DNA of 64,000 nt from Calidithermus chliarophilus DSM 9957 (GTDB taxonomy: Bacteria > Deinococcota > Deinococci > Deinococcales > Thermaceae). Shown here piece after piece: positions 38,122 through 50,695 of the stretch. The position numbers and the translations under genes are program-made. The notes under the pieces were generated by a model that had not been told where the DNA came from, did no database searches, and worked only from the letters and a program-made list of their open reading frames with translations. The stretch is taken from NCBI RefSeq assembly GCF_000430045.1, contig NZ_KE387026.1, positions 74,844 to 138,843 of the forward strand. Direction: 5' to 3'. The number at the start of each line of letters is the position of its first letter. Position 1 is the first letter of the stretch.

Positions 38122-38350
38122 GGCCGGGGCCATCCAGCGAACGGGGCGGGTGCGTATATCCTGGTAGCCCTCCCTCCCTTTTCCGGCCGGTGCGTCGTGA
38201 GGGCGTTCACCATATTTGATAAAGCAACGCTCAAGTTCCCTAAGTGTGGCCTCTGACCCTATTGACGGGGAGGGGGGTTGTAGAATCCGAATAAGTCGTT
38301 CTTTCCCGCCGTGGAGCGACGGTTTGGTAGGCGGGACATGGAGGAAGAGA

Positions 38351-40728
<2,378 letters not shown>

Positions 40729-40729
<1 letters not shown>

Positions 40730-40864
40730 TACCGGATTCAAAAAGATAATCATCCGAACCAAAGAGCCCCGGAGGCCATCTTTTTGGACCCCAGAGCGCA
40801 CCCCTCCCTGACGGTCGGCGAAGCAAGCGTCACCCTTCGGTGACGAACTAACCGAATCGGGTAT
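40729..40864 (+). mobile_element. MITE copy 4 (shorter), flanked by TAA/TAA; the left TAA is the lon stop codon
   Basis: ATACCGGATTCAAAAAGAT...GAATCGGGTAT. Confidence 0.75.
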
Positions 40865-40883
40865 AAGTCTCCCGAACAAAAAC

Positions 40884-40987: not shown

Positions 40988-42508
40988 TCACTTCTTGATG
41001 CTCACCAGCTCGCTCAGGATGCTGTCCAGCGAGCCCACGTTGATGCGCTCGATCTTCTCCGAGATGCGCTCCAACACCTCCAGCTCCTTCAGGCGCAGGG
41101 CGATGGGGTTGTCCTCCATCACCTTGGCGGTGTTGAGCATGCTGCGGGTGGCGGCGGTCTCCTCGCGGCGGCGGATCACGTTGGCCTGCGCGGCCTTCTC
41201 GGCCTCCACCACCCGCGAGAGGATGGCCTTGATCTCGCCGGGCAGGATGATGTCCTTCACGCCCACGCTATCGACCTCGAGGCCGTAGCCCTCGGTCTTG
41301 CGGGCGATGTAGGCGGCCACCTCGCGGTCGATGAGGCCCTTGTCCTCCAGCAGCTCGTCGAGGGTGCGGGTGCCCACGGCGGCGCGCAGGCCGAACTGCA
41401 GCTCCTTGTAGAGGTAGCCCTCCACGTCGGCGAGCTTGGCCTTGGCGGCCACGGCGTCGGTGACCTTGTAGCCGGCGGTGAGGTTGAGGCGCAGGGGCAC
41501 CTTGTCCTTGGTGAGGATCTCCTGGCCCGAGACCTCGAGGGTCTGCAGGCGGGTGTCGAGCACCTCGGTCTTGAGGGCGCGGCCGAAGACCCACCAGGCG
41601 TGCAGGCCGGGGCCCAGGGTCTCGCGGAAGGCGCCATCCACGTAGAGCAGGCCCACGTGCTGCGCGGGCACCTCGCGCACGTGCAGGTGCTTGAGGGTGA
41701 GGTGGGCCACCTCGGGCAGGCCGCTCACCAGCTCGGCGGCGAGCGCGGGGCTGAGCTTGAAGTGCTCGAGGGTGTCGAGCACCTCCACCTCCACGCCCTT
41801 CCAGAACAGCTTGCGGCTAGCGGGGGGCAGCACGGCGATCACCTTGCCCTTGTGGCGCACCAGGGCCACCTGGGCGGCGCCGAGCTGCACCGACTCGCAG
41901 TACTGGGCCACGAAGCCGGGGTGGCGCTCGAGCAGCACGTCCTCGAGGGGCAGGTTGGGCACGGGCTGGGTGCGGTCGTAGGTGTGCACGGTGATCTTGC
42001 GCTCGTAGACCCAGAAGCCGTAGGTGCCGGGCTCGAGGGGGCGCACGAAGTTGCCGCGGTCGTAGAGCAGGCCGATCTGCGACTCGGCGACCTGCACCAT
42101 CTGCAGGCCCGCCAGGCTCTTGTCCTTGAGCAGCTTGGCGTGCTCGGCGGGGAGCTCGAAGCCGGCCTCGAGGTCGAACACCTGCGCCTCGACCTCCACG
42201 AAGCCCTTCCAGAAGGCGCGGAGCTGGTTGGGGCCGACGGTGATCCAGCCCTGGCCCAGCCGCACCAGCGCCGCCTGGGCGGGGCCGGTCTTGACCACGG
42301 TGAAGTGCTCGGCCAGCACGTCGGGGCGGGCCTTGAGGAGGAACTCGAGGTTGGGAATAGTGGCCTCGGGCTCGCTCAGGTCGTACTTCTGCACGCTCCA
42401 GCCCTGGCCCAGCAGGCGGTGCAGGCCGGGCATGAGCACCGCGCGGAAGTCGCCCCAGCGGGAGAGCAGGCCGCGCTCGTGCTGCTTGATACGTAGGCTC
42501 TTGAACAT
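40988..42508 (-). CDS. SPFH/band-7 (stomatin/flotillin-like) domain protein with ~280-aa N-terminal region containing two extra SPFH-N-like repeats; no TM segment
   Basis: C-terminal VKDIILPGEIKAILSRVVEAEKAAQANVIRRREETAATRS is a typical SPFH tail; GLLYVDGAFRETLGPGLHAWWVF plus two similar N-terminal segments (IGLLYDRGNFVRPLEPGTYGFWVY; RGLLSRWGDFRAVLMPGLHRLL). Confidence 0.65.
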   Translation of the reverse strand: MFKSLRIKQHERGLLSRWGDFRAVLMPGLHRLLGQGWSVQKYDLSEPEATIPNLEFLLKARPDVLAEHFTVVKTGPAQAALVRLGQGWITVGPNQLRAFWKGFVEVEAQVFDLEAGFELPAEHAKLLKDKSLAGLQMVQVAESQIGLLYDRGNFVRPLEPGTYGFWVYERKITVHTYDRTQPVPNLPLEDVLLERHPGFVAQYCESVQLGAAQVALVRHKGKVIAVLPPASRKLFWKGVEVEVLDTLEHFKLSPALAAELVSGLPEVAHLTLKHLHVREVPAQHVGLLYVDGAFRETLGPGLHAWWVFGRALKTEVLDTRLQTLEVSGQEILTKDKVPLRLNLTAGYKVTDAVAAKAKLADVEGYLYKELQFGLRAAVGTRTLDELLEDKGLIDREVAAYIARKTEGYGLEVDSVGVKDIILPGEIKAILSRVVEAEKAAQANVIRRREETAATRSMLNTAKVMEDNPIALRLKELEVLERISEKIERINVGSLDSILSELVSIKK

Positions 42509-42509
42509 C

Positions 42510-43017
42510 GGAGTTCACCTCCTCCTTCGGGCGCGTGCCTCCCCAAGGTCGCAGGCACGCAGGATATTCGCACGGGATTGCTCCCGGTTGGGGCAGAAAA
42601 GGCCCTGCCTGGGACTCCCACAGCTACGGAGCGGGCGAAAGGACGAGCGCTCGTCCTTGGCAGCGTTTGCAGCAGGCCGGATTAAGGGCTCGGGGCGGCC
42701 TCGAGCTTCGCCCGAAGGCTCGGCCCGGAGGCTCTCCTCCGCCCAGATGCGGTGTTCCCGCAGGCCGCACCGCGCGTGGCGAACCAGGCGCGGATCTGGC
42801 CGGGGGAAGACGCGCACTCGGGCGCTGCTGTCCCACGCTCGCCGGGTCGTTCGCTGCTGCCCCCTAGGGGCGAGCCCTTCGGGAGCCGGGAGCGACCCAT
42901 GCAGGGTTTGTGCTGCGCCTCGCGGCGCGGTGAAGGATTTGAACCTTCTCGGCTTTCGCCTTTACCCAAAAGACACCTTTTCAGGGTGTTTGACCCACTC
43001 CGATTACGAGTCGGAAG
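42510..43017 (-). other. ~500-nt GC-rich non-coding region between the tRNA-like genes and the SPFH gene; contains a tRNA 3-prime-half-like fragment (GAAGGTTCAAATCCTTC-ACCGCGC) at 42915-42945; candidate structured RNA or element scar
   Basis: No credible ORF on either strand; several GC hairpins; no RNase P P4 motif (GGAAAGUCCGG) and no tmRNA tag frame seen. Confidence 0.3.
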
Positions 43018-43088
43018 GTCAGGATGCGGGATTCGAACCCGCGACTGCCGGAGTGAGCTCCGGTGCTCTGCCACTGAGCTAATCCTGT
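43018..43088 (-). tRNA. tRNA-like gene #1 (degenerate: 1-72 mismatch, 6-nt anticodon loop GCTCAC, no CCA)
   Basis: ACAGGAT-TA-GCTCAGTGGCAGAGC-A-CCGGA/GCTCAC/TCCGG-CAGTC-GCGGGTTCGAATCCCGC-ATCCTGA; D- and T-arms are canonical, the anticodon arm is not. Confidence 0.4.
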
Positions 43089-43160
43089 GGTGCACGATGT
43101 GGGATTCGAACCCACGCCCTCGCCCTGCACGGGCGCGCTCTGCCGCTGAGCTAATCGCGC
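43088..43160 (-). tRNA. tRNA-like gene #2 with encoded CCA; anticodon arm folds as 5-bp stem + 5-nt loop GUGCA (possible Cys-GCA-like) rather than a canonical 7-nt loop
   Basis: GCGCGAT-TA-GCTCAGCGGCAGAGC-G-CGCCC/GTGCA/GGGCG-AGGGC-GTGGGTTCGAATCCCAC-ATCGTGC-A-CCA; acceptor pairs 7/7. Confidence 0.5.
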
Positions 43161-43290
43161 GGCGGTACGTCCGGCTGCTTTCGGCGGTACACCCTCCGCG
43201 AAGCGCGGGGGCGCCAGCCAGGCCTGCAGAGCCTGGGCCTTTGCCTCCAGGAACCCGACTTTCCCGGCGTCTTAGCAGACGCAAGAACAG

Positions 43291-43319
43291 ATGGTAGCAT
43301 TCGAATGCTACTTTAGCAA
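43291..43319 (-). promoter_or_regulatory. Putative promoter for the tRNA-like genes (TTGCTA -17- TACCAT) whose spacer is a perfect 18-bp palindrome GTAGCATTCGAATGCTAC (43294-43311)
   Basis: Read on the minus strand; the palindrome exactly fills the -35/-10 spacer. Confidence 0.45.
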
Positions 43320-43427
43320 GCCCCCCAGAACTGGGATAATCAGGGCCATGGGTCGCGTCATCGCTTTCGTGGTTATTACGGCACTGGTCCTGATCGCCTG
43401 GTTCGCGCTGCTGCACCGCTACGGGGG

Positions 43428-44309
43428 CTAAAACTTCGCCAACAGCCGCCGCGCGTACAGCGGCGCGTAAAAATAGGCGGCCGAGCCGAACCCGGTGAGC
43501 GCGTAGCCGCCGGGGATTTCCTTGAGGTAGTCCCGGTCGAGGCGGTAGCGAACGCTGCTCCAGCTCGAGCGCCACTCCGGCCGGTACCCCAGCAGTTGCT
43601 CGGCGCCCGAGAGCAGCCACTCGACCTCCTGCGGCCGGATCTGGTGGGGCGAATAGCGGTCCTGGTGCGGCAGGTAGCTCCCGCCCAGGCTGTGCCCGGC
43701 CACGTAGACGCCGTAGGAGCGGGCCTGCTTGAAGTGCTCGTGGGTGATGAGCACCGAGCCCGGCGTGAAGCGCCCCCCGAGCCCGGCCAGGTGGGCCCCG
43801 CTGGCCCCGCCGGCATAGACCAGCACCTCGCCCGTGAGGTTCCGCCCGTCCTCGAGCCACAGCGTGCTCCCCTCGAGGCGCTCCACGCTGGCCCACACGA
43901 TGTCCAGGCCCTCGGCCAGGCGGTGCAGGAGCGGGGTGGACTCGAGCCAGCCCGCGCTCTGCAGGTACAGGCCCTCCTCGAGCCACTTGTGGGGGATGCC
44001 GCGCCCCTCGAGCCGCGCCTGCCACGCCTCGCGGTCGGGCCTAGGCACCGGGCGCAGGATGCCCCGGCGCACGGGAGTGAAGCGGGGGTAGAAGCCCCAG
44101 AGGGCCTCGAGGGCCTCCTCGGCCTCGGGGGCGACCGCTCCGCGCTTGCCCCGCACCGGGTTGAGCAGGGGATCGGGCACCCGGCTCGCGTCGCCCAGCT
44201 CCCGGCTGACCACCCGCACCCGGTGCCCCGCCTCGTGCAGGAGCCGGGCCGCGGTCAGGCCCGCGATGCCCGCGCCCAACACCACGATCCCGGCGTCCGG
44301 CTGGCTCAC
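43428..44309 (-). CDS. FAD-dependent oxidoreductase (short, amine-oxidase/ThiO-like fold)
   Basis: GIVVLGAGIAGLTAARLL dinucleotide-binding motif; 293 aa. Confidence 0.6.
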   Translation of the reverse strand: MSQPDAGIVVLGAGIAGLTAARLLHEAGHRVRVVSRELGDASRVPDPLLNPVRGKRGAVAPEAEEALEALWGFYPRFTPVRRGILRPVPRPDREAWQARLEGRGIPHKWLEEGLYLQSAGWLESTPLLHRLAEGLDIVWASVERLEGSTLWLEDGRNLTGEVLVYAGGASGAHLAGLGGRFTPGSVLITHEHFKQARSYGVYVAGHSLGGSYLPHQDRYSPHQIRPQEVEWLLSGAEQLLGYRPEWRSSWSSVRYRLDRDYLKEIPGGYALTGFGSAAYFYAPLYARRLLAKF

Positions 44310-50618: not shown

Positions 50619-50695
50619 TGGTGCGCCCGGCAGGACTCGAACCTGCGACCTAAGGTTTAGGAAACCTTCGCTCTATCCGGCTGAGCTACGAGCGC
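50619..50695 (-). tRNA. tRNA-Arg (anticodon CCT)
   Basis: GCGCTCG-TA-GCTCAGCCGGATAGAGC-G-AAGGT/TTCCTAA/ACCTT-AGGTC-GCAGGTTCGAGTCCTGC-CGGGCGC-A-CCA; canonical cloverleaf, 7-nt anticodon loop with U33, A37. Confidence 0.9.

Follow-up and report, generated by a model that had tools for sequence, protein, structure and literature searches.

The gene considered here codes for an SPFH-family protein of 506 amino acids (aa) in Calidithermus chliarophilus DSM 9957. It lies on the minus strand, at positions 40988-42508, of a 64,000-nucleotide stretch of genomic DNA (assembly GCF_000430045.1, contig NZ_KE387026.1) that is named the window below and to whose numbering all coordinates refer. On the same strand, the sequence upstream of this gene is occupied from a conserved promoter to the ribosome binding site (RBS) by a single conserved folded RNA of about 780 nucleotides (nt). 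The RNA is composed of a 5' domain, two tRNA-like modules called A and B, a truncated third module with a T-arm, and a 3' domain. An earlier reading of the same DNA, made from the letters and their open reading frames (ORFs) and here termed the sequence-only reading, had noticed modules A and B and the tract that follows them. It offered three explanations, namely tRNA genes in decay at the site of a former integration, tRNA-like elements acting as decoys or as signals for the processing of a long leader RNA, and an unrecognised structured non-coding RNA (ncRNA). The last two proposals pointed in the right direction but are not alternatives, the elements being modules of a single RNA whose 5' domain had passed unnoticed.

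A scan of one genome per species yielded 80 loci encoding relatives of the SPFH protein with 57-74% identity, mostly cyanobacterial, with one from Meiothermus and one from a Deinococcus metagenome-assembled genome (MAG). In 74 of these loci the SPFH gene is preceded, according to ARAGORN, by one to three tRNA-like genes, always on its strand and never on the opposite one. These genes usually abut, they are found roughly 400-700 nt before the start codon, and their anticodon loops are called at off-register positions. Apart from these, the only tRNA called in the 80 loci is a normal one, which follows the SPFH gene in locus L062. Beyond the 74, two loci feature the accompanying RNA motifs and two have too little upstream sequence; the arrangement is present in 76 of the 78 informative loci, in different phyla. 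The genes that flank the pair in the window (lon and genes for an FAD oxidoreductase and a MiaB-like enzyme) are found in none of the other loci. Clustering of the ORFs from all 80 loci gave as conserved neighbours only the SPFH gene, a reverse transcriptase (RT) gene in 10 loci and a cluster of ORFs of about 190 aa in 8 loci. Conservation stops at the flanks, so that the RNA and the SPFH gene form a self-contained two-part cassette. This cassette occurs in cyanobacteria, Deinococcota and other bacteria, with an SPFH protein identity of 60-80% across phyla.

The promoter (43291-43319, minus strand), as read from the sequence, has a -35 element TTGCTA (43319-43314), a spacer of 17 nt and a -10 element TACCAT (43296-43291); with 8 of 12 consensus matches it received no score from the promoter scanner. 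The -10 block reads TGCTACAT in cyanobacteria and ATGCTACCAT in the window, and is found at a constant distance from the RNA in an alignment of 48 related loci. The perfect palindrome GTAGCATTCGAATGCTAC, 18 nt long (43311-43294, minus strand), covers part of the spacer and the first 3 nt of the -10 element. The sequence-only reading had placed the promoter, its 17-nt spacing and the palindrome correctly, but the palindrome does not fill the spacer exactly as it had claimed. The scanner labels it terminator-like and nothing more. The palindrome is present in three Deinococcota-type sequences (window, L188 and L001) and not in cyanobacteria. L188 retains the -35, the -10 and the palindrome arms GCATTC.AATGC, and L001 retains the arms and the -10, its aligned stretch beginning within the spacer. 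A divergent sigma-70-like promoter, TTAGCA-16-GATAAT, is called by the scanner on the plus strand at 43313-43340, where it overlaps the palindrome. The hydrophobic small ORF MGRVIAFVVITALVLIAWFALLHRYGG of 27 aa (43348-43431, plus strand) is likewise divergent from the RNA promoter and has no match in the other loci by tblastn.

The 5' domain (43161-43285, minus strand; about 125 nt) consists of hairpin P1, helix P2 and a linker that leads to module A. P1 has the sequence CCAGG-CUCUGCAGG-CCUGG in the window (about 43239-43216, minus strand) and UCGGG-UUCUGUAUA-CCCGA in cyanobacteria. P2 is formed by CUGGCGCC...GGGUGUACCGCC (about 43217-43183, minus strand), which enclose the hairpin CCGCG-CUU-CGCGG, and its cyanobacterial counterpart is CUGGUGCGCC...GCGUAUACCGC. 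The domain was aligned over the 300 nt upstream of A in the 48 loci. RNAalifold recovers from these 48 sequences P1, P2 and both cloverleaves, with 56 pairs of which 42 show compensatory double changes, exemplified in P1 and P2 by the exchange of UA and CG in 21 sequences and of GC and AU in 17. An nhmmer profile of the 5' domain built from cyanobacteria only has a single match in the window, at 43244-43179 on the minus strand (E=0.005).

Modules A (43088-43160) and B (43017-43088) follow on the same strand. ARAGORN describes A as 'Ala tgc at position 32' and B as '??? two-base anticodon tc'. The Rfam tRNA model gives them 54.9 and 49.9 bits, respectively, over its full length, and the cmscan alignment shows 5 (A) and 6 (B) loop residues where the model has 7 and a non-paired 1:72 position in B. 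In the window, the acceptor stem of A pairs perfectly over 7 bp and is followed by A73 and CCA; A also has D and T arms and an 'anticodon' stem of 5 bp whose loop, GUGCA, has 5 nt. B has D and T arms as well. Its positions 1 and 72 form an A1.A72 mismatch, its loop GCUCAC measures 6 nt, and CCUUCC stands where a CCA would be. The base at 43088 is common to both, being the final A of the CCA of A and the first base of B. The tRNA-Arg(CCT) of the window (50619-50695, minus strand) is a normal ARAGORN call with 69.6 bits. The description given by the sequence-only reading is thus upheld for the two abutting genes with their non-canonical loops, for the acceptor stem and CCA of A, for the mismatch, missing CCA and first base of B, and for the canonical tRNA-Arg. 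That reading had reckoned with an error in its manual fold; the covariance model displays the non-canonical loops and gives no confident canonical tRNA.

Comparison of A and B in 48 homologues shows that both modules keep the acceptor stem, which covaries between phyla, the GG of the D-loop, the T-loop and an N73-CC(A) tail. The 'anticodon' arm of A is hypervariable even among close relatives, the other parts of A being almost invariant, and the window already differs in it from relatives with 80% SPFH protein identity. Its loop measures 5 nt in 16 of the 48 homologues, 7 nt in 24, and 4, 6, 8 or 15 nt in the remainder. Since both its length and its sequence vary freely across the family, the 5-nt loop of the window is a family trait. 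The loop of B has 7 nt in 47/48 homologues and reads CUCAUAA in 27/48 and also in the closest relatives L188 and L189, which makes the 6-nt GCUCAC of the window a derived state. Of the 46 homologues with a base at position 1:72 of B, 43 have it unpaired, most commonly as A.A like in the window, and a CCA is encoded after B in about 32 of the 48. The called 'anticodons' change from locus to locus, no fixed anticodon being found among orthologues. Modules A and B of the window cannot decode because their loops have 5 and 6 nt and the anticodon loop is not maintained. The L-shape and the ends are retained and the anticodon is free or lost, a pattern that, on comparative sequence grounds, is that of tRNA mimics and not of decoders.

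Some features would suit working non-canonical tRNAs, that is, aminoacylated adaptors for decoding or for non-ribosomal transfer that merely share the SPFH transcript. These are the 7-nt loop of B found outside the window, with CUCAUAA presenting the anticodon CAU in more than half of the homologues and in the two close relatives, the NCCA tails, and the combination of G3:U70 and A73 in module A of the window. Such a role appears highly improbable, as decoding is excluded by the loops of the window and the 'anticodons' vary among orthologues. Furthermore, the unpaired 1:72 position of B disfavours delivery by EF-Tu, and the conserved 5' and 3' domains would be left unexplained. An alanine identity of A was also considered. 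G3:U70 together with A73 is the alanine identity set of alanyl-tRNA synthetase (AlaRS), and A carries both in addition to its CCA. The proposal was rejected because G3:U70 is present in just 5/48 A and 22/48 B modules and is therefore incidental.

The segment after B (42908-43016, minus strand) contains a linker and the truncated third tRNA-like module, made of hairpins, a GNRA mini-hairpin and a T-arm. The linker forms the hairpins UCCGA-CUCGUAA-UCGGA (43015-42999) and ACACC-CUGAAAA-GGUGU (42989-42973). Both loops have 7 nt and a shape like that of an anticodon loop, the first one reading CUUUUAA in L001, a likeness that may be coincidence. The segment further holds GGUAAA and the mini-hairpin GGC-GAAA-GCC (42960-42951), followed by the T-arm GAAGG-UUCAAAU-CCUUC at the GAAGGTTCAAATCCTTC site (42948-42932, minus strand) and by the hairpin GCGCC-GCGA-GGCGC. 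This T-arm is the look-alike of a tRNA 3' half that the sequence-only reading had pointed out; it is real and belongs to a block, GGUA-(GNRA hairpin)-AG-(T-arm), that is kept family-wide from cyanobacteria to the window with covarying stems. Nostocales have a complete third tRNA-like gene at the position of the truncated module, and in the window a weak match to the tRNA-Sec model (17.6 bits) covers 42924-43001.

Blocks conserved between phyla extend downstream of B nearly to the start codon. The 3' domain (42610-42903, minus strand; about 290 nt) has 12 helices and is closed by pairing of 42899-42887 with 42620-42610. It features a conserved pairing of CGAGUGCGCGUCUUCCC with GGGAACACCGCAUCUGG, the unpaired motif CUUAAUCC and a GCCCGC motif. 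A global MAFFT alignment of the downstream tract from 36 loci was too gappy for folding and a motif-anchored alignment was used instead. The consensus, drawn from 27 sequences, comprises 105 pairs in the 12 helices and was compared to controls in which the pairing partners were slid by 1-3 columns and to 500 column shuffles. Paired cells amount to 84.3% versus 39-42% in the slid controls, 89 of the 105 pairs are changed on both sides versus 48-59, and the covariation score is 0.357 versus about 0.10; none of the 500 shuffles came as high. The minimum free energy fold of the window (42907-42606) has -163.7 kcal/mol (z=-2.5) and recovers the closing helix, the central helix that joins the two most conserved blocks, and the unpaired state of CUUAAUCC.

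Two candidates for pairing partners were discarded. The 3' strand of the closing helix had been placed in CCGGGAGC-AAU-CCCGUG (42587-42571), which comparison with L001 showed to be a separate conserved GCAA hairpin, the true partner being 42620-42610. A pairing of the 3' end of A with the 3' domain, like that of a primer-binding site, was found by eye in Nostocales only and not in Deinococcota, and was dropped as coincidence. Only the window has, within its 3' domain, an extra hairpin of 10 perfect base pairs, AAGGACGAGC/GCUCGUCCUU (42658-42639, minus strand), which L001, L188 and L189 lack.

The models made from cyanobacteria alone recognise the 3' domain of the window poorly. A covariance model of the central helices has one match in the 64 kb, which falls at the correct site, 42819-42743 on the minus strand (9.7 bits, E 2.4), and a sequence-only profile of the cyanobacterial domain has none in the window. 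Of 84 consensus pairs, the window sequence forms 45 in the MAFFT alignment, and 11 of 13 in helix 8, the low overall figure being due to misalignment of the variable helices. The homology of the window tract rests on the collinearity of the modules, on the conserved blocks and on the GC-rich sequences L001, L037, L092, L188 and L189, which are intermediate in sequence.

Between the 3' domain and the start codon there is a spacer (42509-42609, minus strand), read from the sequence, with three hairpins followed by the RBS GAAGGAGGAGG (42527-42517). The hairpins are GGCAG..CUGCC (42609-42592), CGGGA-GCAA-UCCCG (42586-42573), which covaries with its L001 counterpart CGAGG-GCAA-CCUCG, and GCGUGCCU..AGGCACGC (42560-42533). 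In the window, a terminator scan detected no U-tract terminator anywhere from the RNA to the start codon. The tract had been described as devoid of ORFs. Mechanical ORFs of 70-447 aa do traverse it on both strands, as expected at 70% GC, but none of them is conserved, and the substitutions follow paired RNA helices and not codons.

The collected comparisons leave little room for the view that these are decayed tRNA genes or an integration scar. It was suggested by features of the window itself, where the loops are non-canonical, one gene lacks the CCA and a T-arm fragment lies downstream. The same modules recur in the same order in the 76 loci, across phyla and between unrelated flanks, with compensatory substitutions, and the recurring traits comprise the abutment of the pair, the 1:72 mismatch of B and the odd loops of A. 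Recurrence ahead of the same SPFH gene in cyanobacteria, Deinococcota and GC-rich bacteria argues for selection, not decay. The RNA is not a lineage-specific remnant as an attachment (att) scar would be; no integrase search was made in the window. This explanation, the first one of the sequence-only reading, is hardly credible.

The family extends beyond the initial set. In a GC-rich lineage outside the cyanobacteria the RNA lies before the gene of a protein with 75% identity, once beside CRISPR adaptation genes, and in cyanobacteria before that of a 660-aa variant; it also accompanies a soil variant of the SPFH protein with 45% identity. A search with the 5'-domain pattern matched 93 metagenomic stretches, about 31 of which have the RNA features. 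Of these, all that have sufficient downstream sequence carry there an SPFH gene (45-60% identity) or an RT gene, except L109. In L109 (about 400-1950) the RNA is broken within the anticodon arm of A by an insertion sequence with a 477-aa ORF on the opposite strand, which resembles TnpB/IS605 as judged from its N-terminal sequence and not from a search. Viral contigs yielded one pattern match lacking RNA features, attributed to chance, and no sign of a phage-borne element. A plasmid search with the tract returned generic tRNA matches only.

Several loci have further genes close to the cassette. The ORF of about 190 aa separates the 3' domain from the SPFH gene in 8 Nostocales loci, L035 and L073 among them; the L073 version (193 aa, starting MSNFDNQLENFYAKNGQEW...) appears YdeI-like by eye, no search having been made. 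In L088 (7552-9228), from an Oculatellaceae MAG, a group II intron (RVT_N, RVT_1, GIIM, HNH) separates the tRNA-like modules. The cassette of the GC-rich relative L092 (1-3851) is directly downstream of genes for a DEAD/MZB helicase, a Cas4-Cas1 fusion and Cas2. L091, which has the same SPFH gene, carries different genes there, suggesting a variable island. A ParE-type toxin/Unstab_antitox pair follows the SPFH gene immediately in L188 (4386-4920). In the window the gene convergent with the SPFH gene is an ORF at 38216-40729 (plus strand) with the N-terminus LPVIPLRSTVI..., Lon protease-like by eye and not by a search; the 879-aa ORF antisense to it (38240-40879, minus strand) has no Pfam match and is probably spurious.

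The SPFH protein has two N-terminal beta-rich units of about 135 aa, a Band_7 domain (aa 279-450) and a long C-terminal helix. Its sequence is identical to that of a 'slipin family protein' of Calidithermus chliarophilus. In the AlphaFold model (predicted local distance difference test score, pLDDT, of 83 overall and 90 for the N-terminal 275 aa) each unit is made of two five-stranded sheets with short helices; the SPFH domain comes next and the helical tail has about 80 residues. The protein thus shows the Band_7 domain followed by an oligomerising helix that marks the SPFH family. No membrane segment and no N-terminal membrane anchor are predicted, the highest 19-residue hydropathy mean being 1.07. 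The only full-length alignments found by Foldseek are to the major vault protein (MVP; 585-634 columns, E down to 4.5e-14), which is also the sole whole-domain match of high probability for the N-terminal 275 aa alone (0.92, E=2e-3). Pfam recognises no vault repeats in the protein, and no PADLOC defence model matches it. The N-terminal repeat module was found in 451 cluster representatives, with 1-6 matched stretches per protein. P0256, P0258, P0303 and P0372 have 4-6 stretches in proteins of 670-920 aa, and the repeat number of the family seems therefore expandable, as in MVP. The protein is a member of the SPFH family, and its vault resemblance is an architectural lead and not a membership.

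In 14 of the 80 loci an RT of about 350 aa, or fragments of it, adjoins the RNA on the same strand. The RT matches the PADLOC model RT_XIII with 537 bits (E=1e-161). Three layouts were found: RNA, RT, second 3' domain and SPFH gene (L010, L046); full RNA, RT, reduced second RNA and SPFH gene (L040 group); and RT, RNA and SPFH gene (L035, L088). In the RT loci the RT and the SPFH genes are each preceded by their own copy of at least the 3' domain. The two other short-form RTs that were looked up, P0128 and P0122 (about 345-350 aa; Nostoc sp. PCC 7107 and an Oculatellaceae MAG), have the same context, with the RNA and a Band_7 gene downstream of them. The short form has about 100 N-terminal residues fewer. 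A long-form relative belongs to a canonical type XIII retron (L081), where its partners are HEAT/WGR and 546-aa proteins and a tRNA-like RNA is absent. The 64 kb of the window contain no RT (tblastn, best E 1.6), nor do any of the Deinococcota-type loci, and the same holds for 66 of the 80 loci overall. The RT is an accessory of a subset of loci, often decaying, and not part of the core.

These RT loci call to mind a retron-like retroelement in which the RNA would be template or primer of the RT and the SPFH protein an anti-phage effector, loci without RT being remnants or using an RT encoded elsewhere. The strength of the RT_XIII match, the order RNA then RT of several loci, which mimics msr-msd followed by RT, the position of P0128 and P0122, and the CRISPR adaptation genes adjoining L092 all fit such an element. 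However, RNA and protein are highly conserved in the many loci that lack an RT, the window included, and the fragmentary state of several RT copies shows that they are being lost. The canonical type XIII locus differs by the absence of tRNA-like RNA and by its partners, as the WH-SWIM and ARM/HEAT proteins, present at L081, are not among the conserved neighbours of the 80 loci, and the RT of the cassette is of the short form. The canonical locus agrees with the work of Mestre et al. 2020 (PMC7736814) on the type XIII retron, which mentions neither tRNA nor SPFH. With an SPFH protein that matches no PADLOC model, a retron nature of the cassette seems improbable.

Rfam 15 detects in the window and in 15 related loci only tRNA (RF00005), and assigns no family to the 500-nt tract downstream of A and B, an assignment that would have counted against the sequence-only reading. 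The best non-tRNA match is YrlA, with 26.4 bits at the A/B junction for a gathering threshold of 69. No description of the RNA, or of its pairing with an SPFH gene, was found in the literature. This RNA class is thus absent from Rfam 15 and from the literature searched, and is tied to an unusual SPFH protein and partly to a retron-derived RT.

YrlA (RF02553) with its partner Rsr/Ro60 is a relevant parallel, an ncRNA with a non-decoding module that mimics the acceptor, D and T arms of tRNA and is encoded beside its protein partner. The sub-threshold match, however, reflects merely a T-arm followed by a D-arm. The RNA described here has 2-3 complete cloverleaves with free NCCA ends and about 400 nt of further conserved structure, and its neighbour is an SPFH and not a TROVE-domain protein. 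OLE (with OapA/B/C), GOLLD and ROOL are comparable in size (0.6-0.8 kb), in their many covarying helices and in their tight link to specific genes, and GOLLD and ROOL are often found near tRNAs. They differ in taxa and partner protein, no Rfam match connects them to this RNA, and here the tRNA-like modules are internal and conserved. In the thrU-tyrU-glyT-thrT-tufB operon of E. coli, too, tRNA-shaped units come before a protein gene in one transcript, from which RNase P presumably releases them, but these are normal tRNAs that decode, and no other conserved RNA domain accompanies them.

We favour the interpretation, with a probability of roughly 45%, that an oligomeric assembly of the SPFH protein has the pieces of the RNA as its dedicated partners, be it as cofactor, scaffold or cargo, and that in some cyanobacteria the RNA is a partner of the RT as well. 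In favour of this are the linkage of RNA and SPFH gene between unshared flanks, the compensatory changes in the helices and a tRNA mimicry that dispenses with decoding. The RNA and the SPFH gene would be transcribed together from the conserved promoter, no terminator having been found in the window. The primary transcript would probably be cut at the tRNA-like modules by the tRNA-processing machinery, with RNase P acting at their 5' ends. Such an excision is suggested by the conserved NCC(A) tails and by the one-base overlap of the CCA of A with B, where the cut before B would complete or expose the CCA of A. This would yield a fragment from the 5' end, two mimics of tRNA size and an SPFH mRNA that carries the 3' domain, and RNA and protein would be produced jointly at a fixed ratio.

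Several points weigh against this interpretation. Cleavage by RNase P and contact between RNA and protein are inferred. The models built from cyanobacteria match the window with low statistical significance (E 0.005 and 2.4). L017 and L021 have the SPFH gene but lack the RNA. That the RT gene and the SPFH gene each have a copy of the RNA before them agrees with a leader no less than with a partner, and an RNA that is always upstream, on the same strand and in the window without terminator, is also what a cis-regulatory leader would give.

The main rival is accordingly a cis-acting leader, a very large 5' untranslated region that would control read-through, stability or translation of the SPFH (and RT) mRNA, the tRNA-like modules serving as RNase P entry sites or as sensors of the machinery that processes or charges tRNA. 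The constant position and strand of the RNA, its uninterrupted junction to the gene in the window and its duplication in the RT loci all speak for such a role. Yet with 700-800 nt, three tRNA-like modules and a closed domain of 12 helices the RNA, to our knowledge, exceeds every bacterial leader described by a wide margin. Neither a conserved terminator/antiterminator nor an alternative fold that sequesters the RBS was detected, weak and inconsistent candidates being limited to two cyanobacterial loci. The distance from RNA to start codon is variable, with about 60 nt at one extreme and over 250 nt at the other, and entire genes or a group II intron may be inserted there; the separation of RNA and SPFH gene by other genes or introns in several loci argues against a simple leader. 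The conserved NCCA tails argue for released RNAs. A leader role is thus a serious but rather unlikely explanation.

The dedicated-partner interpretation may be taken a step further by comparison with the eukaryotic vault, formed by MVP and vault RNA. The SPFH protein, soluble and built of N-terminal beta repeats followed by an SPFH-like 'shoulder' and a long helix, appears to resemble MVP in its architecture, and like the vault the protein is linked to small structured RNAs with tRNA-type elements. The cassette might encode a bacterial vault-like ribonucleoprotein, a counterpart or relative of the vault with its tRNA-promoter-like RNAs. It would have a closed cage of SPFH protein and a built-in RNA processed into tRNA-shaped pieces and the 290-nt domain, to which some cyanobacteria would add an RT. 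The closed cage is proposed by analogy, as MVP forms cages and membrane SPFH proteins assemble in a cup form. A preprint on bacterial MVP deals with proteins other than this SPFH protein. This extension is speculative and we regard it as quite unlikely.

The RNA would add to the bacterial repertoire a large and widespread class of structured RNA, of about 0.7-0.8 kb, with hundreds of instances in at least three phylum-level lineages. SPFH proteins are known to scaffold membranes and to regulate proteases. An RNA that partners with one of them did not turn up in the literature searched, and this would be the first such RNA tied to a protein of the family. It would also show the tRNA shape reused in tandem within a bigger RNA, and a recurrent link to a retron-derived RT outside the known retron types. 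A practical consequence concerns annotation, as these loci cause spurious or odd tRNA calls in many genomes, such as tRNA-Met, tRNA-Pyl, undetermined tRNAs and tRNAs with two- or four-base anticodons. The vault-like build of the protein would make the origin of the vault ribonucleoprotein experimentally approachable in bacteria.

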